Positions 6,285-22,742 of a stretch of DNA of 64,000 nucleotides are shown here, piece after piece (positions within the stretch are counted from its first letter, which is position 1; every line of letters starts with the position of its first letter). The position numbers were made by a program, and so were the translations under genes. The stretch spans positions 2,089,527-2,153,526 of the forward strand of contig OZ244993.1 of the NCBI GenBank assembly GCA_965223485.1, given 5' to 3'. Below the pieces are notes generated by a model. It searched no databases. It saw only the letters and a program-made list of their open reading frames with translations, and was not told the DNA's origin. Source of the DNA: Rhodothermales bacterium (GTDB lineage: Bacteria > Bacteroidota > Rhodothermia > Rhodothermales > VXPQ01).

Positions 6285-6424
6285 TTGACTACGTGCATAT
6301 CTTTCGGATGTGACACGGGTGCGGGTGGTGCGGACAGGCTGCCGAAAGGCGCCTGTCTGTGTCGTCTGCGTTTCGGTTTTTTGAGCGCACCTTCAAACCC
6401 TGATTCGCCGATCCACCGGTCGCT

Positions 6425-7741: not shown

Positions 7742-7787
7742 TTCCGGTTTCCGCCGTCCCCTTTCTCCGGCACACCACCGGCTCCGC

Positions 7788-10700
7788 ATGCCCGGCCTGT
7801 GCTCCGTGGCGCTTGCCCTCTTGTGGGCATGCTCCTGGCCGCATTCCGCCCAAACCCAAATTCATACCGAAACTCCGAGCCAAGGTAGCCCCAAAACCTT
7901 GGCCTGGGCCCACACCCAAACTCCGGGTCAAGGCAGCCCCCAAACCTTGGCCTGGAACCAAACCCAAACACCGGGTCAAGGTAGCCCCCAAACCTTGATC
8001 CGGAACCGGGCCCGGAACCAGACCCTTCCCGTCACCTTCCGCTACATCCCCGAACAGGTTTTTGCCGAGCGCGCCTTTGTCCCCGGCACATTCAACGGAT
8101 GGGGTACTCCGTACCAGGGAAACACGTCCTGCATCCGGGCAGACCACGCCTCGGCCATGTCGTTCGTCCGGTTCGAGCGCTACTGGCTCTACACGATCCC
8201 CCTCGAAATAGGCAGCACCTACGAGTACAAGGTGCAGGTCCATCTCGACATCGCAGGCGCCGACTGTTCCTGGCTCACCGATCCGCTGAACCCCCGGTCC
8301 AACCCTGCGGACAACAACAATTCCGTGCTCACCGTCACGGACCCCATGATCTTCCAGCCCGCCCAGGAGATCGAAAACGGGGCCTTCTCCGCCGGACTGT
8401 TCTCCACGCAGCCGTTCGTTTCCATCGTCTACCATATCAATGGGGTCGAATATGCCGACGGCCTTGACCGGTACGACCCCGACACAGGCGTTTTCCGGGT
8501 CGAGACTCCCCGCCGCATTCCTCCCGGCGCACAGTTCCGCATGGTGGCCACCGACCAGGCGGGCCGCCGCGTGGAAGCTGAAATAGGCCGCATCCTCGCT
8601 CCCGTCGAGTGGGTGGGCCCCGCATTTTCCACGGTCAGGGAGGAAGTTTCTCTCCGCGCCTACGTCACGGGCCTCGACGGCGCCGTAGACCCGAACATCA
8701 CGCAGGCCACGCTCCTGCGCAACGGCGAGGAAATGGGCACGGTAGCCGTAACCGACGGAGAAGCGCACGTCACGGCGCCGCTCGAACTGGGTGACAACGG
8801 ATTCCAGCTCCGCCTCGAGCCCGACGGGGGCGCCGTCCCGCACCCGCTTGTCTCCGATCCGATCGTGATCAACCGCCGCCTGCACCCGCTGGATCGCGCG
8901 CTGGTCAACTTTTCCGTAACAGGCTCCGGAAATCGGTTCGACATTTCCATTGCCTCCATTACCCCTGCGGATACCGGCCATGTGACCGTGCAATTCGAAT
9001 ACCCCGCCGATTTCGAGGACCCGTTCAACACCACGGAGGTAAGGGGGTTTACTAAAGGCCCGGCCGGCATAAGTGGCTTTGCCGACGGCCCTGGGGAAGT
9101 GTACGTGAATTTTGACTTCAGACACTCCAACGGCGAAACAGGGCGCCGCCGCGTGGCTGTCGTCATCGAGGAGGATGGTACGGCGCGGGAAATGCGCTAC
9201 GAGGAAACCGCCTCCTGGGTCCACAACGCGGTGGTCTACGAGATTTTCCCCTTCAGTTTCGGGCCGGAAGCCTTCGGCGCCCCCGCGAATCCGGGCCGCC
9301 GCCTCCGCGACATCACCCGCGAGTTGGACTACATCGCGCAGATGGGCTTCAACACCATCTGGTTCATGCCGATCATGCACAATCAGGTGATGAACCAGAT
9401 TTCCGGGGGCTACAACATCATCGACTTCTACAAGGTCGATCCCCGCCTGGGCACGAACAGAGATTTCAAGGCCCTCGTAGAGCGGGCGCACGAACTCGGC
9501 ATACGGGTCATCCTCGACATTACGCCCAGCCATGTATCCCCGGCGCACCCGTGGGTCGCCAGCCTGCGCAACGGCGGTCCGTACGGGGCCTACCTGCAGA
9601 CGGAACCCAGCGCCCACAACCTCGGGCTCGACAACCGGGGCGCCAACCTCCCCGAAGTCCGGCAGGCCGGGGCCGATTATTACAAGTACCAGGGATTCGG
9701 GGACCTGGCGAACCTCGACTGGAACAACGACGATTTGCAAGCCGAGATGCTCGACATGCTGGCGTTCTGGGTGAACGAATTCGACATCGACGGCTGGCGG
9801 CTGGACGTGTACTGGGGGCCGTGGCGGCGCTACGGGCCGGATCGCTTCGGGCGGCCCATCCGTACGCTCATGAAACGGCTGAAGCCCGATGCCTGGCTGC
9901 TCGGCGAGATCGTGGGGACGGGAAGCGGCACGGAGGTCTACTACGCCGACGCCCTGCGCGGCGCCCGCTTCGAGGGCGGCATCGACGCCGGCTACGACTG
10001 GCCGTTCTACCATAATGTAGTGAGAGGAGGGTACGGCCTGCTCGCCACGTACGACCGGTATGCGCACAACGAAGATTTTCACCCCGGCCCGAATGCCCGC
10101 TACTTTCGTTTTCTGGAGAACCACGACGAACAGCGTATTGCCTCGCTGCATGCCTCCAGCCCCGACCGCCTGTTCCCGCTTGCGGGGTTTCTGCTCACGA
10201 CCACGGGCGTGCCGATGGTATACCAGGGGCAGGAGGTGGCTTTCCGTGCGGGGGCGGACCCGAGGCGCGCGCCGGTGGACTGGAATACTCCCCGCAACGG
10301 CGAGTTCGCCCGTCATTACCAGCGCCTGGCGCATGCCCGCGCCCGGTTCCCGGCCTTTGGCGCCCAGCAACTCAATACGCTGAGCACGCGCGGCGTGTAC
10401 GGCTACGTGCGCCCCTATGTGGACGAAAACGCCCTCGTTCTTGTCAATTTTTCGTCCGTTTCCCGCACTGTGACAATAGATCCAAGCCCCCACGTCACGA
10501 TGTCGAATCCCGGTCCTGTCCCGTATTACGACATTTTTGCGGATACCTCGGCTGCATATCCGGGGGGGTTCGACGTCACGGTGCCTCCCTATGAGACCGT
10601 TATATATATAACGAGTGAGGATCCCGGCTTTGAGCCGCCTTCGCTCCCGTCCTTGCCGTATGGGGCGGTCTACACCTCCGCAGAGCGCGAGGAGTTGCCC

Positions 10701-10964
10701 GTTTCTGTGAAACTTTCAAGGAATTACCCGAATCCCTTCAACCCCGAGACGACCATTGAGTATATGTTGCCGCGAGCGGAGACGGTGCGCCTGGTCGTGT
10801 ACGACCTGCTGGGCAGGGAAGTAGCCCGCCTTGTGGACGGTATGCGTCCGGCAGGCCGTCACCGGGTACGTTTCAGAGCGGGGGAACTCCCCAGTGGAAC
10901 GTATGTATACCGCCTCGAAACCGCCGGGAAACGGCATACGCAGACGATGGTTCTGGCGAAATGA
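7788..10964 (+). CDS. GH13 alpha-amylase-family enzyme with N-terminal repeat linker, E-set/CBM48-like module and T9SS C-terminal domain
   Basis: GH13 regions: VILDITPSH (I), DGWRLDVYW (II), WLLGEIVG (III), FLENHDEQR (IV). There is an FVPGTFNGWG module upstream. The signal peptide (MPGLCSVALALLWACSWPHSAQ) starts at ATG 7788, inside track ORF 7686. The tail is a T9SS CTD (NYPNPFNPETTIEYMLP..VYRLETAGKRHTQTMVLAK). Confidence 0.85.
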   Translation: MPGLCSVALALLWACSWPHSAQTQIHTETPSQGSPKTLAWAHTQTPGQGSPQTLAWNQTQTPGQGSPQTLIRNRARNQTLPVTFRYIPEQVFAERAFVPGTFNGWGTPYQGNTSCIRADHASAMSFVRFERYWLYTIPLEIGSTYEYKVQVHLDIAGADCSWLTDPLNPRSNPADNNNSVLTVTDPMIFQPAQEIENGAFSAGLFSTQPFVSIVYHINGVEYADGLDRYDPDTGVFRVETPRRIPPGAQFRMVATDQAGRRVEAEIGRILAPVEWVGPAFSTVREEVSLRAYVTGLDGAVDPNITQATLLRNGEEMGTVAVTDGEAHVTAPLELGDNGFQLRLEPDGGAVPHPLVSDPIVINRRLHPLDRALVNFSVTGSGNRFDISIASITPADTGHVTVQFEYPADFEDPFNTTEVRGFTKGPAGISGFADGPGEVYVNFDFRHSNGETGRRRVAVVIEEDGTAREMRYEETASWVHNAVVYEIFPFSFGPEAFGAPANPGRRLRDITRELDYIAQMGFNTIWFMPIMHNQVMNQISGGYNIIDFYKVDPRLGTNRDFKALVERAHELGIRVILDITPSHVSPAHPWVASLRNGGPYGAYLQTEPSAHNLGLDNRGANLPEVRQAGADYYKYQGFGDLANLDWNNDDLQAEMLDMLAFWVNEFDIDGWRLDVYWGPWRRYGPDRFGRPIRTLMKRLKPDAWLLGEIVGTGSGTEVYYADALRGARFEGGIDAGYDWPFYHNVVRGGYGLLATYDRYAHNEDFHPGPNARYFRFLENHDEQRIASLHASSPDRLFPLAGFLLTTTGVPMVYQGQEVAFRAGADPRRAPVDWNTPRNGEFARHYQRLAHARARFPAFGAQQLNTLSTRGVYGYVRPYVDENALVLVNFSSVSRTVTIDPSPHVTMSNPGPVPYYDIFADTSAAYPGGFDVTVPPYETVIYITSEDPGFEPPSLPSLPYGAVYTSAEREELPVSVKLSRNYPNPFNPETTIEYMLPRAETVRLVVYDLLGREVARLVDGMRPAGRHRVRFRAGELPSGTYVYRLETAGKRHTQTMVLAK
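7854..8009 (+). repeat. 48-bp tandem repeat x3 (first unit 60 bp) encoding (T)QTPGQGSPQTLAW(N)
   Basis: Units lie at 7854-7913, 7914-7961 and 7962-8009, in frame directly after the signal peptide of the GH13 protein. Confidence 0.85.
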
Positions 10965-11061
10965 AGGAGTGGGGAGCACTGGAACCCTGCATATGTCCCG
11001 GTTATTAAAAAAAATATGGAACAGGGGTTGATTCTGTTTGTTCATTCAGCGAACTTTCCAC

Positions 11062-11119
11062 TTGACACTGGAAAAAGCATTGCCTATACTTGACAAGTAT
11101 GAGCGCGGTGTCGTACATT
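11062..11119 (+). promoter_or_regulatory. Two overlapping sigma70-like promoters upstream of adhesin-like paralogue 1
   Basis: TTGACA(11062-67)-17 bp-TATACT(11085-90) and TTGACA(11090-95)-18 bp-TACATT(11114-19). Both lie just outside the shared inverted-repeat arm that begins at 11128. Promoter rules for this phylum are uncertain. Confidence 0.4.
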
Positions 11120-11127
11120 GTTGGTAT

Positions 11128-11411
11128 GTGCCCTTACGGGTACACACTAAGCGCGTACACCTGCCTGGACACACCCACCCATACCCAAATGATCACTCTC
11201 TGTGAGGGTGGCACGTCATTTTAACCAACATTGAGCATAAGCCATGACGTTCTTGCTTCAGAAATTCAATGCGATCAACCGCACTTGCACCGAGGCGCGG
11301 GCCCGGAACGGCTTGCGGCTCACCGCAGGCGGTATCGCTTTCACCGGCCGCCTTGCGGCTTGCCTGTTGCTGGCGGGCTTCCTGGGTGTGGGGTCCGCAA
11401 TGGCGCAGCCC
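11128..11411. repeat. 5' inverted-repeat arm A (116-nt leader plus first 56 codons)
   Basis: It is near-identical to the reverse complement of 18746-19029, with only a few substitutions by eye. Confidence 0.9.
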
Positions 11412-13718
11412 CATGTCCTCCGCATGGGGGACGGGGCGGTAACCGTTAGTACTGACCTTAGTAATGGTGACGACGGGAAAGTACATCACTATGTGATCGG
11501 GAAGACGGCCACTAATGATCCTACGAGTAACGGTAGCGTGAATACGTTTCTCGTTGGAAGCATTGCCCTGGTCACTTTTGACGACATCGCTAACACGCTC
11601 ATGGTCACCCCGGTTGCAGTGGGCGCATTCAAGATTGCCTTGACCAGTGCGATTGGAGCCTTAACCGACGATCTGTCGACTATTGGTGGCACGCCCATCA
11701 ACTTCGAGATCCTGTCGGGTAATGCACCCATGCTTATAGGGGCTGCGGACAATGCGGCAGTGCAGATCGATATGGTATCTCTTGAGTTGATTCCGAGGGA
11801 CGACACATCGAAAGAGTATGACTTGCTTGACTGGTTCAGCGACCCGAACGATGTCTTCCTTACCTACGAAGCCAAGGTGGATATGGTGGCTAAAGATGAT
11901 CCGGATCCATTGCCTGACCCCTTGGTAGCCCCGCGAAGAGCGAAGGTCGACAAAGACGGTGTAAACATCGTGAGCGCGACGAGAGTCGGAAACAAGCTGA
12001 CCGTTGCCCTTACGAAGGATGCGAAGATGGCCGACCAGACCGACATTTGGGTATTCGGACGCGACGGCAGCGAATACGCCAGGAAGCGGATTCAGGTGAC
12101 GGTAGGTTCGTCAACCAATCCGTATGTCATGACGGTGATTGCGGACGATGTTCTGCGGGAGGATGCGGCTGCAGATACCCACTACGAACTGGCTTCGGGT
12201 TTCATGGATCCTGATGTGGCTTCTACTGACAGGGATGTTGATGATGGTGATGCAATGACATTGACCTACGCAGTCAGCATCAGCGATAAGAATGCGGCCA
12301 AAGTGGGTTCGGAGGTCTACTTCACGTGGGTTACCTCGTACATGACGGCGAGGGTTGTGCTAAGGGATACTGATGCGGACGCCGTTGGGCACGAAGGAGG
12401 AGCTTTATTAACCATCCGCCCCCGCGCGCCGGGGTCGGCCACGTTCACGGTGACAGCCACGGATAAGGGTGAGTTTTGCCGGGATGCGGGTGCGGATGAG
12501 AGTGTCAATGTCGTCGACAAGGAGGGTAGTAACACCGAGCATGATGCTACGGGGGATGTGGCAGCGGTCAGGTGCCAGCACATAGACACCTCAGGTGCCG
12601 AGAACGACACCACGTATACGGCACTGTTCCCTGACACCAAGTCCGTTAAGGATGCCTTCACGGTGACCATCGTAACCAAGACCTCGCCGATCTCGGATGT
12701 AGAGATTGATGCCATGGAAGTAGTAGCGGACGGGGATGCCATTATGTTCGATCTGGAAGATCTGAACGGCGATAAGGATGGCGAGCCAAAGGCATTCACG
12801 GATCCCACGAAGGAAGGATTGACCTATACGGTGGAGGCGGCACAGGTTAAAGACAACGATATCGCAACGGTAAGCGTGGACGGCAGTATGGTCACGATTG
12901 CCCCGCTATGGCGTTCTGGCGACGAGAACACCACCGTTACGGTGAAGGCCACGAACAACCTTGACGAGGAGAGTCTTTCTTCAACGTTCGGCTTGACGGT
13001 CAAGACGGCCACGAAGCCGGTTGTGAACCAGAGCCTGGCTGTGCAAGGTGTTCTGGCTATGGGCTTCTCGCTGAATACGGGCGATGCGCCGATGGTAGTG
13101 CCTCTGGCAAATCTCACGGGTGCGACGGAGCCGCCTTTTGTGGCGCTCTTCATCGATCCGAATGCGGCTGCACGCGATGCGCTTCCGGGCGGGCTGTTGT
13201 TAGAGATGAAGGTAGAGGATGTGGTAGCCGATCATGTCTACGAGAACCAGAGCAAGACGAATGACGTGACCACATCGGCCATGCGCCTCGTGCTGGATCC
13301 GTCTGGCCCCAATCCCACACTGACGATCACGCCTACCGGCGCCAACTCGGCGACCGTGACGGTCAGGGCGACCGACCGTGAGCGCAACATGGTTTCGGCG
13401 ATGACGACCATCACGGTTATATCGGGTGTAGGCACGGAAGGCGAGGAACTGCCGACGGAAGTCAGCCTTTCCCAGAACTATCCGAACCCGTTCAATCCGC
13501 AGACGACCATCGACTACGCCTTGCCGAAGGCGGGCGATGTGAGCCTCGTCGTGTACGACATGCTCGGTCGTGAAGTGGATGTGTTGCTTGACGGTCCTCA
13601 GGCCGCTGGCCGGCACACGGTGCGCTTCGGTGCGAATCACTTGCCGAACGGCACCTACGTATACCGCCTTGTGGCGGCAGACAAGACAATTACGCGCACA
13701 ATGGTTCTTGTCAAATAA
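11244..13718 (+). CDS. Large adhesin-like T9SS cargo protein, paralogue 1 (824 aa)
   Basis: It has a long signal peptide (..LAACLLLAGFLGVGSAMAQP). Repeated Ig/cadherin-like segments follow (..LTIRPRAPGSATFTVTATD.., ..TTVTVKATNNLDEESL..TVK.., ..SATVTVRATDRE..TTITV). The tail is a canonical T9SS CTD (LSQNYPNPFNPQTTIDYALPKAGDVSLVVYDMLGREV..YVYRLVAADKTITRTMVLVK). Confidence 0.8.
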   Translation: MTFLLQKFNAINRTCTEARARNGLRLTAGGIAFTGRLAACLLLAGFLGVGSAMAQPHVLRMGDGAVTVSTDLSNGDDGKVHHYVIGKTATNDPTSNGSVNTFLVGSIALVTFDDIANTLMVTPVAVGAFKIALTSAIGALTDDLSTIGGTPINFEILSGNAPMLIGAADNAAVQIDMVSLELIPRDDTSKEYDLLDWFSDPNDVFLTYEAKVDMVAKDDPDPLPDPLVAPRRAKVDKDGVNIVSATRVGNKLTVALTKDAKMADQTDIWVFGRDGSEYARKRIQVTVGSSTNPYVMTVIADDVLREDAAADTHYELASGFMDPDVASTDRDVDDGDAMTLTYAVSISDKNAAKVGSEVYFTWVTSYMTARVVLRDTDADAVGHEGGALLTIRPRAPGSATFTVTATDKGEFCRDAGADESVNVVDKEGSNTEHDATGDVAAVRCQHIDTSGAENDTTYTALFPDTKSVKDAFTVTIVTKTSPISDVEIDAMEVVADGDAIMFDLEDLNGDKDGEPKAFTDPTKEGLTYTVEAAQVKDNDIATVSVDGSMVTIAPLWRSGDENTTVTVKATNNLDEESLSSTFGLTVKTATKPVVNQSLAVQGVLAMGFSLNTGDAPMVVPLANLTGATEPPFVALFIDPNAAARDALPGGLLLEMKVEDVVADHVYENQSKTNDVTTSAMRLVLDPSGPNPTLTITPTGANSATVTVRATDRERNMVSAMTTITVISGVGTEGEELPTEVSLSQNYPNPFNPQTTIDYALPKAGDVSLVVYDMLGREVDVLLDGPQAAGRHTVRFGANHLPNGTYVYRLVAADKTITRTMVLVK

Positions 13719-13796
13719 GCGAGAAAGAGAGTCACCTCTCGGCTTATGCTCAGCGAGGCCCCCGTTACCGAAAGGTAGCGGGGGCCTTGTGTGTTT
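13473..13796. repeat. 3' inverted-repeat arm A (CTD coding region plus 78 nt downstream)
   Basis: It is near-identical to the reverse complement of 16292-16615. The coding differences appear mostly synonymous. Confidence 0.9.
13757..13786 (+). terminator. GC-rich hairpin with GAAA tetraloop downstream of paralogue 1
   Basis: GGCCCCCGTTACC-GAAA-GGTAGCGGGGGCC followed by TTGTGTGTTT. The same element recurs at 16302-16331, and a variant at 20312-20341. Confidence 0.5.
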
Positions 13797-13985
13797 GTGG
13801 GGGTGTCAAGATAAATACAGCCAGCGAACGTGCAATTCGCAGGACACGCCCTTTGAAAAATTTGGAGTTATATCTGGCCGGGCCATGAATCTATATGTAT
13901 GGCGATCAGGCTTCGGAGTGATTCTGAGTATTGGCCCATCCTTTTTAAGGCGCTTCTATTGACAATCGTACATAAAGGTGCGAAA

Positions 13986-14192
13986 TTGACTGGCACTGAA
14001 TTTCTCAAGCGAGCCAGGCGCTACGCTAAACAACATGGCAAAAGTTATCACTTTGACCCGCGACAAGGAAAGGGGAGCCATGGTATCCTGTACGTTGGCG
14101 ACCATCGCACGACGGTCAAGCAGGGTAAACTCGCGCCGGGAACGTTTCGCAACATGCTGAAGCAACTCGATATCCCCAAGGAGGATTTCTGA
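13986..14192 (+). CDS. hicA: HicA mRNA-interferase toxin
   Basis: (M)TGTEFLKRARRYAKQHGKSYHFDPRQGKGSHGILYVGDHRTTVKQGKLAPGTFRNMLKQLDI carries the HicA GSH signature. A TTG start at 13986 follows AAGGTG. The stop overlaps the hicB ATG (14192). Confidence 0.75.
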   Translation: MTGTEFLKRARRYAKQHGKSYHFDPRQGKGSHGILYVGDHRTTVKQGKLAPGTFRNMLKQLDIPKEDF

Positions 14193-14632
14193 TGCAGTAT
14201 GCATACCCGTGTGTGTTGACCCCGGAAACAAATGGTGGGTTCTCGGTTTCCTTCCCGGATGTGCCCCAGGCACTCACCAGTGGCGACGATCATGCCGAGG
14301 CTCTGGCTATGGCGGAAGACGCCCTGGTGGCTGCATTGGGCGCGTACATTCAGTGCCGTGAAAACATTCCACCCCCGAGTCCTGTTATCGACGGCCAGAG
14401 ACGTATCGCCGTTCGCTCCATTGTCGCCGCCAAGCTGGCTCTTTACTCGGCAATGCGGGCACAGCGTATCACAAAAACCGAACTTGCCCGCCGCATGGGG
14501 TTGAGTGAAGGCGCCATCCGCAAGCTACTTAATCTCGATCATCGCTCCCATATCGGACAAGTCGAACGAGCATTGCATATTGTCGGGCGCAGTCTGGTGC
14601 TCACCGATGAGCCTGCATTACAAGGCAACTGA
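14192..14632 (+). CDS. hicB: HicB antitoxin (RNase H-like N-domain plus XRE HTH)
   Basis: MQYAYPCVLTPETNGGFSVSFPDVPQALTSGDDHAEALAMAEDAL is a HicB N-domain. The C-terminal TKTELARRMGLSEGAIRKLLN is an HTH. Confidence 0.8.
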   Translation: MQYAYPCVLTPETNGGFSVSFPDVPQALTSGDDHAEALAMAEDALVAALGAYIQCRENIPPPSPVIDGQRRIAVRSIVAAKLALYSAMRAQRITKTELARRMGLSEGAIRKLLNLDHRSHIGQVERALHIVGRSLVLTDEPALQGN

Positions 14633-14699
14633 TCGGGATCGCGTTTTTCGCTATGCGTGATGTATCATCCTCCCGATTTCCGGAACCGCCCCGTTCCGA

Positions 14700-15491
14700 A
14701 TGACCCCCAACGCTACACATCATTACCTCGAACGGCTTGTTCACCATTTTGAGCGGCCGTCCTTTATCGACAGGGATCCCATTTCCATTCCTCACGGATT
14801 CGACGATCCGCGCGACCGGGAGGTTATCGGTCTGTACGCCGCTCTGCTTGCCTGGGGCCGCCGGGAAACCGTCCTGGCGAAGATGAACGAACTCTGCGAG
14901 CGCATGCGTTTTCGCCCCTACGCGTTCATCCGCAGTTTCGATGGGGAACGAGACGCGGACCGCCTGCACGGATTCAGGCACCGGACATTCCAGCCGGAGG
15001 ACCTTTTCTGGTTCACGCACAACCTGGGCATCCTGCTGCGCCGGTACGAAACGATGGAGGAGCTCTTTGCACGGCATCTGCCGGTGGTTGCCCCCCATGT
15101 CGGCCCCGCCATACAGGGGTTCAGCGAAGCGGTCCTGTCGGCTCATCCCGATACCCCGCCGCGCCTGCGTAAACACCTTGCACGCCCGGCGACGGGAAGC
15201 GCCTGCAAACGGCTGAACATGTACCTGCGATGGATGGTGCGGCCCGGACCTGTGGATATGAAGCTGTGGCGCCGCATCGCGCCGAAGCAACTCATGCTCC
15301 CGCTGGATGTGCATTCAGGGCGGGAGGCGCGTCGCCTCGGTATGCTCACCCGCAAGAGCAACGACTGGAAAGCCTGTATCGAGTTGACGGAAAATTGCCG
15401 GCGCCTGTGCGCGCAGGATCCTGCACGCTACGATTTCGCCTTCTTCGGCATAGGCGCCTACGGCCCGCCTGACTTCAGCGAGACCGATTGA
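14700..15491 (+). CDS. TIGR02757/DUF2400-family protein
   Basis: The N-terminal block LERLVHHFERPSFIDRDPISIPHGFDDPRDREVIGLYAALLAWGRR and the size (263 aa) fit that family as I remember it. No search was run. Confidence 0.65.
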   Translation: MTPNATHHYLERLVHHFERPSFIDRDPISIPHGFDDPRDREVIGLYAALLAWGRRETVLAKMNELCERMRFRPYAFIRSFDGERDADRLHGFRHRTFQPEDLFWFTHNLGILLRRYETMEELFARHLPVVAPHVGPAIQGFSEAVLSAHPDTPPRLRKHLARPATGSACKRLNMYLRWMVRPGPVDMKLWRRIAPKQLMLPLDVHSGREARRLGMLTRKSNDWKACIELTENCRRLCAQDPARYDFAFFGIGAYGPPDFSETD

Positions 15492-15530
15492 CCGGGTGGA
15501 GGTGAGACGATTCCATCCGAGCGTATCAGG

Positions 15531-15704
15531 TTATGCCGCATTAAGCTTCGATTCGATGTTGCCTACCCGCTTGTCCATCTGTTCAAAACTTCCGACAAGG
15601 TTACTTACATCCCGATGCAGGGTGCTTACGCTATGCAATAGCCAACCAAGCAGAACGGGTACCGACAGGCTTAACGTGGCGAATACGATTTGGAGGGTGT
15701 CCAT
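15531..15704 (-). CDS. Small (57 aa) N-terminal-TM plus coiled-coil protein, hypothetical
   Basis: This ATG-to-TAA ORF is below the track cutoff. It reads MDTLQIVFATLSLSVPVLLGWLLHSVSTLHRDVSNLVGSFEQMDKRVGNIESKLNAA, a hydrophobic helix followed by heptad-like sequence. Confidence 0.35.
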   Translation of the reverse strand: MDTLQIVFATLSLSVPVLLGWLLHSVSTLHRDVSNLVGSFEQMDKRVGNIESKLNAA

Positions 15705-15890
15705 GGCCTCAGAGACGGTTTGGCGGGCGTCCAGACATTGTCTGGAATAAATATTGGTGATGTTCCGGATTTGTAGTTATGCGGACGCGCCTCAACACTT
15801 CTGTGAGTGGTTTATCCTTCCAGAAATGTCTGGTGGCGAGAGGCGCTTACGGCCCACCCGACTTCAGCGAAGTTTTACCCGTTAATCATG

Positions 15891-16214
15891 TCAGCCCTGC
15901 GAACGCGATGGATTAAACGGACCGACCCCTTTCTCAAGATGATGGATGCCGCCGATGTAGAAAACGTCGATCAGGTCAAGTTTGTGTTTGATCGTCTCCA
16001 CATCCGCCTTGATCGTCTCCACGTCCGCCTTGATCGTCTCCACATCCGCCTTGAGCGTCTCCACATCCGCCTTGAGCGTCTTCACGTCCGCCTTGAGCGT
16101 CTTCACGTCCGCCTTGACCGTCTCCATGTCCGCCTTCAAGCCCTTCATGTCCGTTTCCAGACCGGCGAGGCGGTTATCGATACGTTCAAGGACGTTCTGC
16201 AAGTCCAGGTTCAT
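15891..16214 (-). CDS. Coiled-coil protein built on a 7-aa (21-bp) tandem repeat, hypothetical
   Basis: MNLDLQNVLERIDNRLAGLETDMKGLKADMETVKADVKTLKADVKTLKADVETLKADVETIKADVETIKADVETIKHKL.. shows perfect heptad periodicity. The opposite strand is also open across the repeat, so strand assignment is tentative. Confidence 0.45.
   Translation of the reverse strand: MNLDLQNVLERIDNRLAGLETDMKGLKADMETVKADVKTLKADVKTLKADVETLKADVETIKADVETIKADVETIKHKLDLIDVFYIGGIHHLEKGVGPFNPSRSQG
15990..16157. repeat. 21-bp tandem repeat, 7 good units plus 1 degenerate
   Basis: The unit is GA(T/G)CGTCT(C/T)CAC(A/G)TCCGCCTT, starting at 15990, 16011, 16032, 16053, 16074, 16095 and 16116, with a degenerate unit at 16137. Confidence 0.95.
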
Positions 16215-16291
16215 GATTTCCGCATGGGTTTGGCTGAGGGGTACGGTAATATACGGGAATGAAGCGGGCCTGTTCAGGAGGCGGAGTAATT

Positions 16292-16615
16292 AAACACACA
16301 AGGCCCCCGCTACCTTTCGGTAACGGGGGCCTCGCTGAGCATAAGCCGAGAGGTGACTCTCTTTCTCGCTTATTTGACAAGAACCATTGTGCGCGTAATT
16401 GTCTTGTCTGCCGCCACAAGGCGGTATACATAGGTGCCGTTCGGCAAGTGATTCGCACCGAAGCGCACCGTGTGCCGGCCAGCGGCCTGCGGGCCGTCAA
16501 GCAACACATCCACTTCACGACCGAGCATGTCGTACACGACTAGGCTCACATCGCCTGCCTTCGGCAAGGCGTAGTCGATAGTGGTCTGCGGATTGAACGG
16601 GTTCGGATAGTTCTG
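16292..16615. repeat. 3' inverted-repeat arm B
   Basis: It is the reverse complement of 13473-13796 and covers the CTD coding region, hairpin and flank. Confidence 0.9.
16302..16331 (-). terminator. GC-rich GAAA-tetraloop hairpin downstream of paralogue 2
   Basis: It is the mirror copy of 13757-13786. Confidence 0.5.
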
Positions 16616-18913
16616 CGAAAGCTCGACTTCCGTCGGAAGCTCCTCGCTTTCCGTACCTACGCCCGACACGACCGTGATTGTCGTCGTAGCCGAAATCATG
16701 TGATGCTCACGGTCTATTCCCCAAACCGTCACCATCGCAGAGCTAGCACCGGTAGGCGTGATCGTCAGCGTCGCTGCGGCCGGGTCCAGCACGAGGCGCA
16801 TGGCCGATGTGGTCACGTCATTCTCCTTGCTTTGGTTCGCGTAGACATGAGGGGCTACCACATCATCAGGGAAACGCATCTTGTACAACAGCCCGCCCGG
16901 AAGCGCATCGCCTGTAGCCGCATTCGGGTCGATGAAGAGCGGGATACGATCCTTTACCTCCTTCTGACCCGTGAGATTCGTCAGATGCACTACCACCGGC
17001 GCATCGCCCGTATTCAGCATGATGCCCGTGGCAAGAACGGCGTATACAGCCAGGTTCATGTTCACAACCGGCTTCGTGGCCGTCTTGACGGTCAATGTGA
17101 ATGTCACAGGGAGACTGGTCTCGTCAAGGTTGTTCGTGGCCATGACCGTAACGGTGGTCGGCTTAGTGCCAGCCCGCCATATCGGCGTAATCGTCATCAT
17201 ACTGCCTTCCACAGTGATCACGGCAATGGAGTCCTTTGGCGTCGCCGTATACGTCAATCCCTCCTTCGCGGGATCCGCGAATGCAGCAGGTTCGCCAGTC
17301 TTATCGCCGTTCAGATCTTCCAGATCCACCGTAATGGCGTTCCCGTCCGCTACTACTTCCCGGCCACCAATGGCTACATCCGCCATCGGCGAGGTCTTGG
17401 TCACGACCGTCACCATGACGGAATGCGATGTGGATTGGGCAAAGCGGAATTGAGCTTTACGGGAAGCCACTTCCTTTTTGTCGGCAGCTTTTTCATCCTC
17501 GTCGCGCTCGTCATCTGCCGCAGTGCCGGTGTATCCCATAACCCCAAATGTACTGCCATCGGATTCATCCGTAAAGCAGTAAGCCGCCACGCCCCGAATA
17601 GTAGACGTTTGTTGAACTGCCTCAACTGCCGTTTCCGCCGGAGTATTCGGATCAGTGCTGGTGTCTTCTAACCTGCACATCTCGCCCTTGTCCGTAGCGG
17701 TAACTTTGAATGTTATCACACCCGGCGCACGCGGACGGATATTTAACTTGGTTCCCATTCCGCTAACCGTGGCAACCATAGACGGAACAATGTAAGTCAC
17801 ATCCGGGGCCGTGCCTACTGACGCAGCCGACGCGTCGCTGGTCTCGATCTTGTATTCAAGCATTCCCCCGCCTACCCCGGTAGGATTCGGGGCAGGTGCC
17901 GCCCCCGCCATGAATGTAGTCGAGAAGTCTATGTCTGTATTGTCCAAAGCATCTTCCCGCAGAACCATAGCCCCGGGGGCATTAGCGCTAACGACATAAG
18001 GCGAGCTTCCTACACCTACCGATACCGGAACCTGCCATCTGGCGTATTCACCGGCGCCGTCCGTTGCGAATAACCAAACGTCGGTCATGTCGCCGTCCGC
18101 CGCGTCCTTCGTAAGCGAAATCGTCAGTTTGGCATCATCGGTGGACACCGATACAATATCTTGAGCGTCTTTTGCGTCGTCTGCGACGACCGCTCTCGAC
18201 GTCTTGTGTACCTTATCGGCTTGTGCCCTGTAGGTAAGAAAAACGTCGTTCCGATCAGTGAAGAATGCGTTCAAGTCCTTGAGTGCATCAGGGACAACCG
18301 ACGTTCTATCTCGCAACTGCAAGGCTACGGTATTCGCAGCCATCTGGGAAGCCGCATTATCTTTGTCCACTATCTGGGGCGAATTGGCCGACATGATCTC
18401 AACGTGGACGGGCTTAAGAGCGTCGTCAGTCATCTCGTCCTCGTCAGTAACCCTATCATACACGGGATCCACAGCGATTTTGAAGGCGCCGGGCGCAATC
18501 GGGTTGATTGTCAGCATACCCGCGCTAATGCTGACCAATGCATGCGGCCCGACGAGAAACGAGGCGGTATTGTTCGAGTCGTGTTCAGCAGCAGGGGTCT
18601 GATCGTCGCCATCGTCTACGGTAAGATCGACCGCTTTCGCTGTCCCGATCTGGTAGTGATGCACCCCCCAAGTACCGGGAACTGCACCTGGAAACTCGGT
18701 TGTCAGGTCAATGACTATCTCCCCGCCTCCTACGCGGAGGACCTTGGGCTGCGCCATTGCGGACCCCACACCCAGGAAGCCCGCCAGCAACAGGCAAGCC
18801 GCAAGGCGGCCGGTGAAAGCGATACCGCCTGCGGTGGGCCGCAAGCCGTTCCGGGCCCGCACCTCGGTGCAAGTGCGGTTGATCGCATTGAATTTCTGAA
18901 GCAAGAACGTCAT
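16370..18913 (-). CDS. Large adhesin-like T9SS cargo protein, paralogue 2 (847 aa)
   Basis: Its signal peptide and CTD are near-identical to those of paralogue 1. The C-terminal half is clearly homologous (e.g. VVTKTSPMADVAIGGREVVADGNAITVDLEDLNGDKTGEP), whereas the N-terminal half has strongly diverged. Confidence 0.8.
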   Translation of the reverse strand: MTFLLQKFNAINRTCTEVRARNGLRPTAGGIAFTGRLAACLLLAGFLGVGSAMAQPKVLRVGGGEIVIDLTTEFPGAVPGTWGVHHYQIGTAKAVDLTVDDGDDQTPAAEHDSNNTASFLVGPHALVSISAGMLTINPIAPGAFKIAVDPVYDRVTDEDEMTDDALKPVHVEIMSANSPQIVDKDNAASQMAANTVALQLRDRTSVVPDALKDLNAFFTDRNDVFLTYRAQADKVHKTSRAVVADDAKDAQDIVSVSTDDAKLTISLTKDAADGDMTDVWLFATDGAGEYARWQVPVSVGVGSSPYVVSANAPGAMVLREDALDNTDIDFSTTFMAGAAPAPNPTGVGGGMLEYKIETSDASAASVGTAPDVTYIVPSMVATVSGMGTKLNIRPRAPGVITFKVTATDKGEMCRLEDTSTDPNTPAETAVEAVQQTSTIRGVAAYCFTDESDGSTFGVMGYTGTAADDERDEDEKAADKKEVASRKAQFRFAQSTSHSVMVTVVTKTSPMADVAIGGREVVADGNAITVDLEDLNGDKTGEPAAFADPAKEGLTYTATPKDSIAVITVEGSMMTITPIWRAGTKPTTVTVMATNNLDETSLPVTFTLTVKTATKPVVNMNLAVYAVLATGIMLNTGDAPVVVHLTNLTGQKEVKDRIPLFIDPNAATGDALPGGLLYKMRFPDDVVAPHVYANQSKENDVTTSAMRLVLDPAAATLTITPTGASSAMVTVWGIDREHHMISATTTITVVSGVGTESEELPTEVELSQNYPNPFNPQTTIDYALPKAGDVSLVVYDMLGREVDVLLDGPQAAGRHTVRFGANHLPNGTYVYRLVAADKTITRTMVLVK

Positions 18914-19029
18914 GGCTTATGCTCAATGTTGGTTAAAATGACGTGCCACCCTCACAGAGAGTGATCATTTTGGTATGGGTGGGTGTGTCCAGGCAGGTGT
19001 ACGCGCTTAGTGTGTACCCGTAAGGGCAC
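18746..19029. repeat. 5' inverted-repeat arm B
   Basis: It is the reverse complement of 11128-11411. Confidence 0.9.
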
Positions 19030-19063
19030 TTGATGGACATGACGTGATCAGGAAGCCCTGTCT

Positions 19064-19098
19064 CAAAAGAAAACCCCGCGCCGGACGACCGGGCGGGG
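19064..19098 (-). terminator. Rho-independent terminator of the recombinase gene
   Basis: On the minus strand, GCCCCGCCCGG-tcgt-CCGGCGCGGGG is followed by TTTTCTTTT, about 100 nt after the integrase stop. Confidence 0.65.
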
Positions 19099-19201
19099 CT
19101 TTTCTCGCGAAATGCCGGAAAGCAGGGGGCATATTCCCTGTAAAGCCGGCGGAATCGTTGAGGCGACAACGACCTGCCGCCAATCCGCGGTATGTATGAC
19201 G

Positions 19202-20134
19202 TTATATCCCTATGAAATCGGCAGCGGAATTGTTGAGTTTGTCCTGCTGGTGAATGTAGCGCAAGGTTGTATTGATGCTCTTGTGCCGCGCATGGGTCTG
19301 TACCTGATGGAGGGTTGCGCCTGCTTCCAGCGCAAGCGTGCACCCTGTATGCCTGAGTGTATGGATGGAAATTTCGGGCGGCAATCCGGCCCGCTTTGCT
19401 GCCCGCTTAATGACGTGGGTTATCTGCCGCGTACCCAAACGGGTGCCCAACGTCCGGCCTATCATTGATCTCCATAGCGGCCCGGATTCGATCCTGTAGT
19501 ATGCCTGCATCTCCTGTATTTCCTCCACCACGTGAACGGGGACCTTCACGAATTGGTTGACGCCGCCCTTCGTTTCCGGCAGGTCGATCACCCAATGCCC
19601 ATGCAGCCTTCGGATGTGCTCTACGTCCATGGCGCCAATTTCGGAGCGCCGGAGCAGGCAGTTGAGGAGCGTCAGCACAATTGCATGATTGCGCTTTGCC
19701 GTATTGCAGCGATCCTGTCGTGGGTCAACGAGCGTCGCGTCGAGCAGACGTTGGGACTCTTCTTTGGACAAGGCGAATATCTTCCGCTGAGTCCTGCTCT
19801 CTTTCCTCCGCTTACGGATAAGGTGCTTGTCCGCGGGATTTTTGTGAACAATGTCCATTGCACAAAGCCAATCGAAGAAGACTGCCGTGGCGGTTACGAA
19901 TCCTTCGACGGTAGCGGGTGCGAGAACGTTTTCCGCCTCTTCGATTTGCTTGTTGACGTAATCGGTGGTAATCGCTGCGGCTTCTTTCATGGTCACCGAC
20001 CCCCTCCCGAAGAATCTGGTCAGGTGATAGTGATAAATGCGAATCGTGTTGGGGCGTTCGTATTTTGCGAGGAATCTCTTGATCAAGTCGGTATCGACGT
20101 TGATATGAGTCGCTTGCTCGTTTTGAGTGATCAT
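19202..20134 (-). CDS. Tyrosine site-specific recombinase/integrase
   Basis: The C-terminal catalytic region reads ..LLRRSEIGAMDV.., HTLRHTGCTLALEAGATLHQVQTHARHKSINTTLRYIH (R..HxxR..Y). An N-terminal SAM-like domain is present. Confidence 0.85.
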   Translation of the reverse strand: MITQNEQATHINVDTDLIKRFLAKYERPNTIRIYHYHLTRFFGRGSVTMKEAAAITTDYVNKQIEEAENVLAPATVEGFVTATAVFFDWLCAMDIVHKNPADKHLIRKRRKESRTQRKIFALSKEESQRLLDATLVDPRQDRCNTAKRNHAIVLTLLNCLLRRSEIGAMDVEHIRRLHGHWVIDLPETKGGVNQFVKVPVHVVEEIQEMQAYYRIESGPLWRSMIGRTLGTRLGTRQITHVIKRAAKRAGLPPEISIHTLRHTGCTLALEAGATLHQVQTHARHKSINTTLRYIHQQDKLNNSAADFIGI

Positions 20135-20311
20135 GGCGTTAACCGGTTTATTTTGCGTAATTCCGACATCCCTTCAATGCTGTAAGAAGAGATTCGGACA
20201 AACCGGATCATGCTTTGGATATACTGTCCCGGGAAGCTTGGCGGCAAAAGGCCACGGCGCTCCCTTACTGCCCGCGACAGCGAGCCTTCCTCCCACCCCA
20301 CAAACACACAA

Positions 20312-20341
20312 GGCCCCCGCCGCCTTGCGGCAACGGGGGCC
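20312..20341 (-). terminator. Variant GNRA-loop hairpin downstream of the decayed third paralogue
   Basis: On the minus strand it reads GGCCCCCGTTGCC-GCAA-GGCGGCGGGGGCC followed by TTGTGTGTTTGTGGGG, the same flank as after paralogue 1. Confidence 0.45.
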
Positions 20342-20384
20342 TTGCTTGAGCATCAGCCGAGAGGCGCCTGCCCTCTCTCGTTGC

Positions 20385-21265
20385 TTATTTGAGTAGAACC
20401 ATCGTGCGCGTAATGGTCTTGTCTGCCGCCACAAGGCGGTACACGTAGGCGCCGTTGACGGTCACTTTGAATGTCTGCGGCCAGGTTTCGCCGCTGGCGT
20501 CCTTTGAGGATACCGTATACGTCAACGCACTATCGTCGGGGGTTTCGAACGCAGGCTGAGCGCCGTCCTCTTTGGTGTCTACATCCGCCATATCTATCTG
20601 CATGGCGTCGCCGTCGGCATCCAGTTCCTGATCAGGAATCTTCGTCTTTACTATCGGCGCATCCTTGGATACGATCGTCAGTACAAAGGTATCCTCCACG
20701 GTCTGCGCCTGCGGATCCGTGGCTTTCACCGTAAGGGTGACGCTTCCCGTCGTACGCGGGCGGATCGTGATCTCGCGTCGGAATTGGGCCCGATGTTCGT
20801 CAGGTCGATCTCCGTTCTCATGTACGACGTAATGAATACGTAGGGCGGGTTGTCACCTACTTTCACCGCCGAGTCGTCACTATAGTAACTTCGTACGCCA
20901 AGGCGTCGCCATTGCCGTCCCCGAAGGTTCCAAACAGGTACACTTTCGTGTCGTTTGCGTCATCCTCGCGTATGACTACGTCATTGAGCGGGTTGGCAAC
21001 GTAGGGCTTGGTTGCGCTTGATACGTTCACGCCAATGCGCAATCGGGCGTATTCCTGGGCGCCAGTCTGTTGGCCTGGCTGTCGGTCAATTGCGCCACCG
21101 CCGGCGAAAAAGAAGCGGCGAGTGCGGCGGAACTGTTCGATATATCCCGGTTCTCTATTCCGAGTTCGTCCAGGGTCGTTACCGCATAGTAGATGGAGGC
21201 GCCGAGGGAGGGATGGGGCAATTCGTCCGGGCGCCGGGGTTTTTGCCCCTGAGAGGCAGGGGTTG
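20385..21265 (-). pseudogene. Decayed third copy of the adhesin-like T9SS cargo gene
   Basis: Homologous segments lie in different frames: ..GAQEYARLRIGVNVSSATKPYVANPLNDVVIREDD.., ..REITIRPRTTGSVTLTVKATDPQAQ.., ..ALTYTVSSKDAS... Internal deletions join ..FKVTV directly to the last CTD strands, NGAYVYRLVAADKTITRTMVLLK*. The 5' part is missing; the remnant abuts the stop of the methyltransferase gene. Confidence 0.75.
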
Positions 21266-21267
21266 CC

Positions 21268-22101
21268 TTACCCCACCCGCGCATACGCCGTCACATGCGG
21301 CGGCAGGAGGAGGGGGCGTTTCGCCGCCTTCACTTCCTGCTTCAGCCGCTCTTCCAGCGTGTCCAGGTCCACTTCTTCCGCGGTCGCAATGCCGAGTTGC
21401 TCGAAGAGCGGCATGAAACTCGTGAATCCCTGCACGGCGTACGGGTAGCCGGCCCATGCATCCGCACCGCCCACGAGCGCTTCGTAGTGCATCATCGGGG
21501 CGGGCAGGCCGGCGTCCACGAAGGTGCGGTACAGGCCGAAGCCCATATCCGTAGCCGCTCCAGACCGCTCGAACACCTCGATGACCCAATCTTTCAGTTT
21601 GTTCATCAGGGGCGTATCGGGATGTTCGAAGGTGCGGTACTGCGTGAAGTCCGCCTCCTGAAACGCCACAATGCCGCCGGGGCGGAGGCGCCGTGCGAAT
21701 CCTTTCACGGCTTCTGCGGGATCGGCCATGTACATGAGCACGAGCCGGCCTGCCACGGCGTCGAAGTCGTTCCCAAGATCCAGTGTACGGGCGTCGCCCG
21801 CCACGAATTCGACGTGTTCATGCCCGGCGGCTTCGGCGCGCGCCCGGGCGGTTTCCAGGATCTGCGGGTTCATGTCCACGCCGGTTACGTGGCCTTCCGG
21901 GCCGACGAGGCCTGCAAGGGCCAGCGACACGTCCCCGGCGCCGCTTCCGATGTCCAGCACCTTCATGCCGGGGCCGATGCCGGCTTCCCTGAAGAAGCGC
22001 AGCGTGACGCCCTCGTAGAGCAGCGACTGGGAAATAAGGCGTTCGGTTTCTTCCTCGCTGCGTCCCATGGTGTAGGTCGGGTCGGCATTCGGTTTGGTCA
22101 T
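21268..22101 (-). CDS. Class I SAM-dependent methyltransferase
   Basis: VLDIGSGAGDVSLALAGLV is motif I. GVDMNPQILETAR, FDAVAGRLVLMYMADP and LRPGGIVAF follow. Confidence 0.8.
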   Translation of the reverse strand: MTKPNADPTYTMGRSEEETERLISQSLLYEGVTLRFFREAGIGPGMKVLDIGSGAGDVSLALAGLVGPEGHVTGVDMNPQILETARARAEAAGHEHVEFVAGDARTLDLGNDFDAVAGRLVLMYMADPAEAVKGFARRLRPGGIVAFQEADFTQYRTFEHPDTPLMNKLKDWVIEVFERSGAATDMGFGLYRTFVDAGLPAPMMHYEALVGGADAWAGYPYAVQGFTSFMPLFEQLGIATAEEVDLDTLEERLKQEVKAAKRPLLLPPHVTAYARVG

Positions 22102-22742
22102 GATGTGTACAGGTCTGAAAATCGTAAGAAAGGAGCGGTTTTATGATGTTGTTTTGATGATGTTTGTATCCCTGCCGCTCGCCAGGGAATCACGTGGGCA
22201 TATCCTGCTAAAATGCTTCGTGCGGAGTGGGAATGTCAAGTAAAAAGTATGTGAGGAATGTTGGGATGGCGCAACGCCCGAATGAGCATTTCGAATGGAT
22301 GCTTCGCCAGAGGGGAACTGCCCATATCTGGTGGAATAAAAAGGATACGCCCCCTTGATATGCCGCCTTTGTGTCGGAAACCACAGGCGTCCCGGAAACC
22401 CGATCAGGTGAGTCTCATGTCCTATTCGCTTAACGATATATTGCAATTCGCAAGCGTGAACTACGCCCAAGCCGCCGTGACCGGGCTGTTTGGCGTTATA
22501 GGATTGGGATTCCTTGCGTGGGCCAGTTGGGTCAGTAATGCTCTGAGAAAAAAAGGCATTATATACGAAAGTTGCCAGGCCGGGGCGGGAACAAGCCTTC
22601 ATTTCCGTTATTGCGATGCGGATATGGATGTGCGTACTGGAGGGAGGCGTGAGAAAAAGCGTGGAAAACTCTTGACATTGCTTCATTGGAACACGAAATT
22701 GCCCACCTCCAACACTCGCATCCACTATGGCAGTACAATGCA

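Follow-up and report, generated by a model that had tools for sequence, protein, structure and literature searches.

A putative single-promoter cassette-inversion locus for type IX-secreted, Ig-like surface proteins in uncultured Rhodothermales

We analysed a 64,000-nucleotide (nt) stretch of contig OZ244993.1 from the Rhodothermales bacterium assembly GCA_965223485.1 (hereafter the window, whose positions serve as coordinates throughout), in which two convergent paralogous genes, A (11244..13718, plus strand, 824 residues) and B (16370..18913, minus strand, 847 residues), lie between a double promoter and a tyrosine recombinase gene. With a probability that we put at roughly 60%, the locus is a single-expression-site, multi-cassette inversion system for an immunoglobulin (Ig)-like-repeat surface protein secreted by the type IX secretion system (T9SS). 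Under this reading, a fixed promoter pair beside an alpha-amylase gene (promoters at 11062-11119) would start transcription at the first base of an inverted repeat, the 5' arm, and each cassette would be a promoter-less transcription unit that runs from a structured leader of 116 nt through a signal peptide and a variable body to a conserved T9SS sorting tail and its terminator. By reciprocal exchange between the inverted 5' arms, a segment of about 7.9 kb (11128-19029) would be turned around, leaving B behind the promoters and A parked behind the terminator of the recombinase gene, and the Xer-derived recombinase (19202-20134) would cross over at or near the outer arm edge (11128-11137 / 19020-19029). 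The long arms would in addition undergo homologous recombination and gene conversion, which would homogenise the cassette ends, flip the segment between the cassettes and create mosaic cassettes.

A first-pass annotation, made from the letters of the window, had described A and B as convergent paralogues with near-identical ends and strongly diverged N-terminal halves, and the open reading frame (ORF) list and identity profile bear this out. In the window A occupies the slot at the promoters and B the recombinase-side slot, which has no recognisable promoter; the two proteins are 53% identical overall and least alike in their N-terminal halves. In 60-nt steps, identity is about 99% over the leader and the first ~56 codons, falls to 25-65% through the N-terminal half and recovers to 75-85% across the C-terminal half; in the final ~320 nt, terminators included, it is 97-100%, and the last 82 codons are identical. 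The left 5' arm (11128..11441, plus strand) comprises the leader (11128-11243), the signal-peptide region and the first ~66 codons of A, and the right one (18716..19029, minus strand) the leader (18914-19029) and the first ~66 codons of B; a repeat search returns them as inverted repeat I2, of 314 nt at 96% identity with the first ~284 nt at ~99%, and their homology starts exactly at 11128 in all haplotypes described below. The left 3' arm (13317..13796, plus strand) holds the last ~134 codons of A, which encode the T9SS tail, and a terminator hairpin (13753-13790), and the right one (16292..16771, minus strand) the T9SS tail of B and its terminator (16298-16335); together they form inverted repeat I1, of 480 nt at 92% identity with the last ~320 nt at ~98-100%. 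Both repeats had thus been correctly spotted before, at lengths (284 nt for the 5' pair, 13473-13796/16292-16615 for the 3' pair) that fall short of their full extent. Between the cassettes lies a middle segment (13797..16291) encoding HicA-like, HicB-like and DUF2400 proteins and a coiled-coil ORF. The terminator of the recombinase gene (about 19064-19098), a −32 kcal/mol hairpin followed by a U-tract, UUUUCUUUU, is placed directly upstream of the right 5' arm in a spacer (19030..19201, minus strand) that accompanies the recombinase in all haplotypes and is 100% conserved in L001-L008 (related loci are denoted here by L and a number).

We scanned both strands of the 64 kb for TTGACA-N16-18-TATAAT with at least 10 of 12 positions matching, a consensus that may not be Rhodothermales' own. 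Both sigma70-like promoters that had been proposed outside the left arm were recovered as a tandem pair on the plus strand (11062..11119), P1 as TTGACA-17-TATACT (11062-11090) and P2 as TTGACA-18-TACATT (11090-11119), and they account for two of the five sites at or above the threshold in the window, including the sole site scoring 11/12. The −10 hexamer of P2 ends at 11119 and predicts a transcription start at about 11126-11128, that is, at the first base of the inverted repeat. Across L001, L002, L005, L014, L015, L017, L018 and L020 the hexamers of P1 and P2 are invariant, even in a species whose flanking amylase gene is only 88% identical, and a 17-nt insertion between P1 and P2 in L020 affects none of them; the bases that do vary between lineages lie in the P2 spacer and discriminator, suggesting selection on the promoters themselves. 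Homology between the two slots begins about 8 nt after the P2 −10 hexamer (TACATT) in two different species: in L016/L020 the arm starts with a different sequence, GCGCCCTTGT..., and the homology again sets in 8 nt past TACATT. The promoters remain with the amylase flank in every haplotype and would thus constitute a fixed expression site. On the recombinase side, where the terminator but no comparable promoter had been noted earlier, the sequence from terminator to arm contains the terminator, no match passing the scan, and no −10-like element conserved between species. From these features we infer that promoter activity is confined to one slot and that the other is probably silent.

The promoter assignment also meets several points that weigh against it. 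Both leaders contain a 9/12 sigma70-like match, TGGACA-16-AATGAT (11166-11193 / 18991-18964); no defined promoter consensus is known to us for Rhodothermales; and the presence of only five good sigma70-type sites in 64 kb implies that most genes here use other promoters. The Bacteroidetes-type motif TAnnTTTG occurs nine times in 128 kb, none with a matching −33 element, and is not enriched. One could therefore suppose that there is no expression switch at all, both paralogues being expressed from a leader promoter or by read-through and the locus being a hypervariable allele island whose orientation is neutral. This would fit the position of the internal match inside a highly conserved block, the intactness of both genes, and a cassette divergence far above that of the flanks combined with 100% identity of 19030-22101 across strains, as expected of homologous DNA import. 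We nevertheless regard it as improbable, since the internal −10-like hexamer lacks its final T in L018 and L019 (AATGAC), each hexamer of the strong external promoters is conserved and these promoters exist at one slot only, a strong terminator directly precedes the other slot, and internal cassettes in L015 and L017 lack most of the leader.

The prediction that related genomes would carry the cassettes in the opposite arrangement was confirmed by comparison between strains. An exact-protein look-up of the recombinase retrieved eight loci from long-read and short-read metagenome assemblies and further look-ups added L014-L017 and L020, while exact-protein look-ups of cassette A, cassette B, the amylase and P0001 returned no contigs. 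We derived haplotypes by BLAST of window segments and write them here from recombinase to amylase, with the orientation of the middle segment given relative to 13797-16291. The window then reads recombinase, B>, middle as in window, <A, promoter, and L014 reads B''>, middle flipped, <A''', promoter. At the recombinase, L001, L002 and L005 all carry A'>; L001 continues with the middle flipped, <C and promoter, L002 with the middle as in the window (plus an insertion sequence, IS), <C and promoter, and L005 with the middle flipped, <A'' and promoter. Other cassettes adjoin the recombinase in L003 (B'>, followed beyond the intervening sequence by two further cassettes, one of fn3 type), L004 (D>, then an fn3-type> cassette and further sequence) and L007 (E>, middle flipped). 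The spacer is always with the recombinase and the promoter always with the amylase in these haplotypes. Across nine related strain haplotypes, either slot can thus hold an A-type cassette, with a body 94-95% identical to A: the window and L014 have it behind the promoters, L001, L002 and L005 beside the recombinase, and the flanks are 98-100% identical. The same is true of B-type cassettes, which adjoin the recombinase in the window and L003 and the promoters in L015 and L017. Several haplotypes come from within one sample, ERZ25067264, and the recombinase-slot cassette of L005 and the promoter-slot cassette of L014, also from one sample, share 98.4% identity, a similarity that sets in at base one of the 5' arm and ends with the final base of the 3' arm.

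The middle segment inverts as well. L001 and L002 have the same cassettes in the same slots and flanks 99.2-99.6% identical, and their sole difference is the orientation of the middle, which also differs between the window and L014. Together with the exchange of slots, these contrasts indicate that both repeat pairs recombine: a 5'-arm event would shift cassettes between the slots, and a 3'-arm event would flip only the 2.5-kb middle and leave the proteins unchanged. We also considered the middle segment (HicAB and DUF2400) as a mobile element in its own right and rejected this, as it holds the same position in all lineages. The IS in the middle of L002 (14437-15766) encodes a transposase of the Transposase_mut family.

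That switching is frequent enough for phase or antigenic variation is our reading of these arrangements, and their origin tells against it: all alternative arrangements come from different strains, with flanks diverged by 0.4-2% and cassettes by 1.5-6%, and inversions could be rare events on an evolutionary time scale. It is very improbable that the inverted duplication or the alternative arrangements are themselves products of misassembly, as might be suspected from L020, where the locus is embedded in a perfect palindrome of at least 3.9 kb, and from the frameshift-broken cassettes in L001 and L005. The architecture recurs in independent long-read assemblies from at least six samples, including a circular 3.39-Mb contig; the repeats are far shorter than HiFi reads; and the haplotypes differ by many single-nucleotide polymorphisms (SNPs) besides orientation. 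Misassembly is accordingly rejected for the window, and retained as the likely cause of the L020 palindrome.

Homogenisation of the cassette ends, which the first-pass annotation had taken as a sign of ongoing recombination or gene conversion, is confirmed as concerted evolution of the arms. Within a genome the arms are 96-98% identical (in L016, 98% over at least 295 nt), as against ~80% between species; between the window and L016, the 5' arms are ~80% and the 3' arms ~75% identical. The high identity within genomes and a species-specific 13-nt leader insertion, present in L018 and L019 and carried by both copies of one genome, point to such concerted change.

The gene following the right arm had been called a tyrosine recombinase, and the assignment holds. 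Its product (19202..20134, minus strand, 310 residues, Xer-like) matches PF00589 (Phage_integrase) with an E-value of 5e-21, and the catalytic RxxE...HxxR...H...Y residues are all in place in the translation, making it a candidate invertase. It scores below every NCBIfam Xer/integron equivalog cut-off (the best, XerA_Arch, at 95 bits versus 220; XerC at 81 versus 335; XerD at 77 versus 330), and no PF02899 N-terminal domain was detected in it, whereas this domain is present in the XerD-like Rhodothermales proteins to which it is ~50% identical. The recombinase and its closest relatives form a tight clade (73-94% identity), separated by a gap from the ~50% identity of those XerD-like proteins, and the gene adjoins cassette pairs in L011, L015, L016 and L017. 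We consider it rather probable that this adjacent recombinase catalyses the 5'-arm inversion; the role suggested for it draws on conserved synteny and on one argument from the homology boundary.

Recombination of the 3' arms, which have no obvious regulatory role, weighs against so specific a role, as it implies that generic homologous recombination between repeats of 300-500 nt works here and could explain the 5'-arm events too. In that case the inversions and swaps would be real and due to RecA-type recombination and gene conversion between long repeats, and the recombinase would have a different or marginal part, for instance as the relic of an integrated element or as an Xer paralogue. At 314 nt with 96% identity and 480 nt with 92%, the arms are adequate substrates for this; inversion of the middle uses the 3' arms, for which no switch function is evident; the cassettes are internally mosaic; and species-specific insertions and deletions are common to both leaders. 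Tracking of SNPs along 12 copies of the 5' arm further weakens the case for a dedicated site, since it gives a mosaic with no unique crossover point, as expected of crossovers or conversion tracts at many positions. On the other hand, the recombinase has intact catalytic residues, forms a clade of its own and lies beside cassettes in at least five lineages, down to 74-78% identity; the sharp homology boundary coincides with a conserved dyad at the predicted +1; and the L016/L020 pair leaves only about 10 nt of homology outside the cassette-linked differences. An origin of the 5'-arm events in RecA-type recombination therefore appears unlikely to us, though a serious competitor.

The boundary argument concerns an imperfect palindrome, or 5' hairpin (hairpin 1), at the outer edge of the arm, GTGCCC-TTAC-GGGTAC (11128..11143, plus strand; mirror copy 19014-19029), which occurs twice in the whole window and whose dyad persists between species even where the sequence changes. 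The best candidate for the crossover site is the initial ~10 nt of this palindrome (GYGCCCTTRY, 11128-11137 / 19020-19029), and we accordingly name GTGCCCTTAC as the candidate recombination site, with a 24-nt leader block as the alternative. In L016/L020 the cassette-linked differences begin 11 nt past the homology boundary, and the c1-type cassette brings its own hairpin-1 variant to the recombinase flank and to the promoter flank; only the 10 nt GCGCCCTTGT are common outside the first cassette-linked difference, which is too short for ordinary homologous recombination. Against the dyad, its recombinase-side copy in L019 is degenerate, and both L001 and L002 have an altered form; the L020 junction, for its part, derives from a contig that resembles a fold-back assembly. 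The degenerate copy in L019 had led us to consider hairpin 1 as a slot-linked feature, an idea that was dropped, as the L016/L020 comparison shows that the hairpin can travel with the cassette. The alternative, the near-invariant block CCTGCCTGGACACACCCACCCATA (11160..11183, plus strand; mirror copy 18974-18997), holds the weak TGGACA −35-like hexamer and is found without change in 14 of the 19 fetched loci, some of them from lineages with a recombinase of only 74-78% identity; it is a second candidate for a recombinase or regulatory site. The search of the arms for a recombinase core site that had been suggested thus yielded candidate sites and, in the SNP mosaic, no single switch point. Further into the leader, a second hairpin, CACTCTC-TGT-GAGGGTG (11194..11210, plus strand; mirror copy 18947-18963), includes two pairs with compensatory changes on either side in an alignment of 11 sequences. 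The whole leader folds no better than shuffled sequence (z about −0.7), so that only these two local hairpins are supported, and an Rfam search of 10600-21300 gave nothing for the leader and a sub-threshold ctRNA match on a terminator. The 116-nt leader exceeds the coding sequence in cross-species conservation and may be an undescribed 5' untranslated region (UTR) element.

Four further lineages share the architecture, with the recombinase upstream of a convergent cassette pair around the DUF2400 gene and extra cassettes in tandem: L015, whose recombinase gene is 97% identical to that of the window in nucleotides, and L017, L011 and L016, whose recombinases are 85%, 78% and 77% identical in amino acids. 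The window genome has two full cassettes and its relatives up to 4-5, and the recombinase-side cassettes are intact ORFs in most haplotypes. L017 equals L015 with the recombinase-bearing block inverted between two oppositely oriented cassettes, which leaves an amylase-promoter-cassette unit upstream of the recombinase on the same strand. In both loci the internal tandem cassettes are devoid of the first ~100 nt of the leader; in its place they have a tandem repeat of 14 nt (x2 and x10) and an element that corresponds to the recombinase-upstream region in reverse complement. These leader-less cassettes look like archive copies, which would be expressible only after recombination within the coding part of the 5' arm. 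The 14-nt repeat, TGTAATCCCCCAGT, lies directly upstream of them, in 2 copies in L015 (~17580-17620) and ~10 in L017 (~19440-19580), and may act as a separate repeat-number switch. Between two tandem cassettes of L015, ~165-190 nt of the recombinase-upstream region recur (8500-8664 and 17654-17843) in opposite orientation relative to the neighbouring cassette tail, suggesting older rearrangements with breakpoints at the edges. In L017 a mobile element with a primase (D5_N) and an integrase (5708-9790) is found between the expression-site cassette and the recombinase.

L020, which lies on the same 5.14-Mb contig as L016 (ctg125754), has its cassette segment enclosed by two copies of the amylase-promoter flank, which form a palindrome of 100% identity over at least 3.9 kb (DUF4276-amylase-promoter, 6033-9897 / 18755-22619). 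The contig is ~1.7 times the size of related genomes. L020 is probably a fold-back assembly, as expected if both promoter-cassette junctions were present among the reads, and this hints that both junctions co-exist with identical flanks.

Both cassette proteins carry the T9SS sorting tail (PF18962 / TIGR04183, Por_Secre_tail) above cut-off as their sole Pfam/NCBIfam domain, and their translations begin with a long signal peptide whose hydrophobic segment ends in AMA-QP; signal peptide and Por_Secre_tail together are the marks of T9SS type A cargo. An AlphaFold model of A, built with 21 homologues, is all-beta with a mean predicted local distance difference test (pLDDT) score of 75 and comprises about 7-8 Ig/cadherin-like beta-sandwich domains, and its best Foldseek matches are titin Ig arrays, cadherin ectodomains and the S-layer proteins SbsB and Sap. 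The model thus supports A as a secreted or surface-anchored Ig-like repeat protein; of the earlier description as an adhesin, the surface Ig-like repeat protein stands and the adhesive role is a guess.

Substitution patterns within the cassettes are compatible with such a location. The ratio of non-synonymous to synonymous substitution rates (dN/dS) between alleles of one cassette type is 0.7-0.96 over whole cassettes and 0.4-0.7 in their C-terminal part, and it exceeds 1 for residues 60-480 in two pairs: B of the window versus its counterpart in L003 (1.39), and the recombinase-slot cassette of L005 versus the promoter-slot cassette of L014 (14 non-synonymous versus 1 synonymous substitutions). 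Cassette dS is ~0.07 as against a flank divergence of ~0.01, and individual cassettes are internally mosaic, A of the window and the recombinase-slot cassette of L002 differing by a dS of 0.01 in the N-terminal and 0.14 in the C-terminal part. The pattern is in keeping with a surface protein on which selection is diversifying or relaxed and whose alleles predate the strains now carrying them.

Taken as a cassette-inversion system, the locus appears, by its sequence organisation, to join the known single-promoter, multi-cassette inversion systems, and its closest functional design seems to be that of the Vpma type. In Mycoplasma agalactiae, the Vpma/Xer1 system combines a conserved 5' UTR and signal peptide with a unique promoter, silent genes being moved by inversion, and the vpma 5' UTRs hold an invariant 21 bp (PMC2268961). 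The features shared with this design are a conserved leader and signal-peptide region ahead of a divergent mature part, a Xer-like recombinase with catalytic residues beside the locus, alternative arrangements (here between strains) and, in place of the ~21-24-nt invariant 5' UTR block of vpma, a 24-nt leader block; the recombinases of vpma and of the M. bovis vsp and M. pulmonis vsa loci (Xer1, Mbr and HvsR) are tyrosine recombinases as well. The differences are that the cargo consists of T9SS-secreted Ig-like proteins of ~830 residues instead of lipoproteins, that the arms are long (314 nt) and accompanied by a second, homogenised 3' repeat that flips the segment between the cassettes, and that the phylum is unrelated. 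Closer in lineage (the FCB group, as here), the BT1032-BT1053 shufflon of Bacteroides thetaiotaomicron recombines 5' ends by means of a locus-encoded tyrosine recombinase, one copy having a full-length 5' end and the others being 5'-truncated (bioRxiv 10.1101/521070). The internal cassettes of L015 and L017 mirror these truncated paralogues; unlike in the SusC/SusD shufflons of B. thetaiotaomicron and B. fragilis, whose recombinases are BT1041 and the Tsr family, single genes with a complete leader are exchanged here, and the gene family is different.

The sap locus of Campylobacter fetus has several homologues with conserved 5' regions and a single promoter; the promoter-bearing segment itself inverts, in a RecA-dependent manner, between flanking cassettes of opposite orientation and so changes which surface-array protein is made, with no dedicated recombinase gene. 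The Rhodothermales locus resembles it in its long homologous arms and in the likeness of the A fold to S-layer proteins (SbsB, Sap), and differs in its fixed promoter and its conserved recombinase gene. In the R64/IncI shufflon, Rci exchanges 3' segments of a single pilV gene at 19-bp sfx repeats; a tyrosine recombinase with a multiple-inversion locus that diversifies a surface protein is common to both, whereas here whole genes are exchanged at their 5' end and the repeats measure 314 and 480 nt, which leaves the earlier description of the locus as shufflon-like apt as a loose label and inexact in the R64 sense. What sets the present locus apart is its T9SS cargo, the exchange of what appear to be whole transcription units from +1, the 3' repeat with its flipping middle, and the phylum; we know of no such system in this phylum. 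Most documented cases of programmed surface variation through cassette inversion concern pathogens and gut commensals (Mycoplasma, Bacteroides, Campylobacter), and if the locus really switches, the same strategy would operate in uncultured Rhodothermales with relatives in marine sponge metagenomes. T9SS cargo would then be added to the protein classes under inversion control, a compact recombinase-site pair would be at hand, and switching would account for a strain-level hotspot and a trouble spot for assembly in long-read metagenomes.

The only relatives that the recombinase finds belong to genomes of uncultured Rhodothermales. Cluster representatives of the cassette family number 74, and some are named 'Bacteroidetes bacterium SB06xx_bin', in a series that also includes the sponge-specific Entoporibacteria; the exact leader is also present in two loci of the Sarcotragus foetidus sponge metagenome LXNI01. 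Ig/cadherin-like, 'eukaryote-like' surface proteins of sponge symbionts are suspected to act in host recognition. A more specific proposal, which we advance tentatively and hold to be less probable than not, is that a dedicated clade of Xer-derived invertases, restricted to sponge-associated Rhodothermales, acts on a ~10-nt site at +1 and swaps promoter-less units behind a double promoter for symbiont phase or antigenic variation, with a recombinase-independent layer of inversion and leader-less archive cassettes supplying new variants. If this is true, a major surface protein would be varied against host phagocytosis or phage.

Upstream of the recombinase, a third, truncated copy of the cassette 3' end that the first-pass annotation had missed (T9SS tail and terminator, 20296-20456) belongs to a decayed paralogue (20296..20729, minus strand) with a 114-residue ORF remnant (20385-20729). 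The remnant as a whole (20296-21100, minus strand) derives from a more distant paralogue, of which ~1.35 kb of the middle are deleted in the window and which is intact (791-1420 residues) in L009, L010, L011, L015 and L016. The segment 19030-22101, which contains the spacer, the recombinase, this remnant and a gene for an S-adenosylmethionine (SAM)-methyltransferase, is 100% identical in L001, L004, L005 and L008, the adjoining flanks of which differ by 1-2%, and looks recently spread or swept. At the other side of the locus, the alpha-amylase (7686-10964, 1092 residues) is T9SS cargo too, its tail sharing ~72% DNA identity with the cassette tails (10713-10822 versus 13467-13576). The cassettes of L001 (11224-13734 and 16476-18946) and L005 (10734-13393) are split into several ORFs by frameshifts, although the haplotypes are otherwise nearly identical, and are intact in L002; the splits may be consensus errors from mixed strains or real pseudogenisation. 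Within the middle segment, the HicA-like (13899-14192, plus strand, 97 residues; weak Pfam match) and HicB-like (14192-14632, plus strand, 146 residues; Pfam match) genes and the DUF2400 gene (14700-15491, plus strand; Pfam match) are found between convergent cassettes in every lineage. The neighbouring coiled-coil ORF (15891-16214, minus strand) contains eight in-register copies of a 21-nt (7-residue) tandem repeat at 15946-16174, in a stretch that varies between strains from 779 to 842 nt and is occupied by a much larger array in L011.

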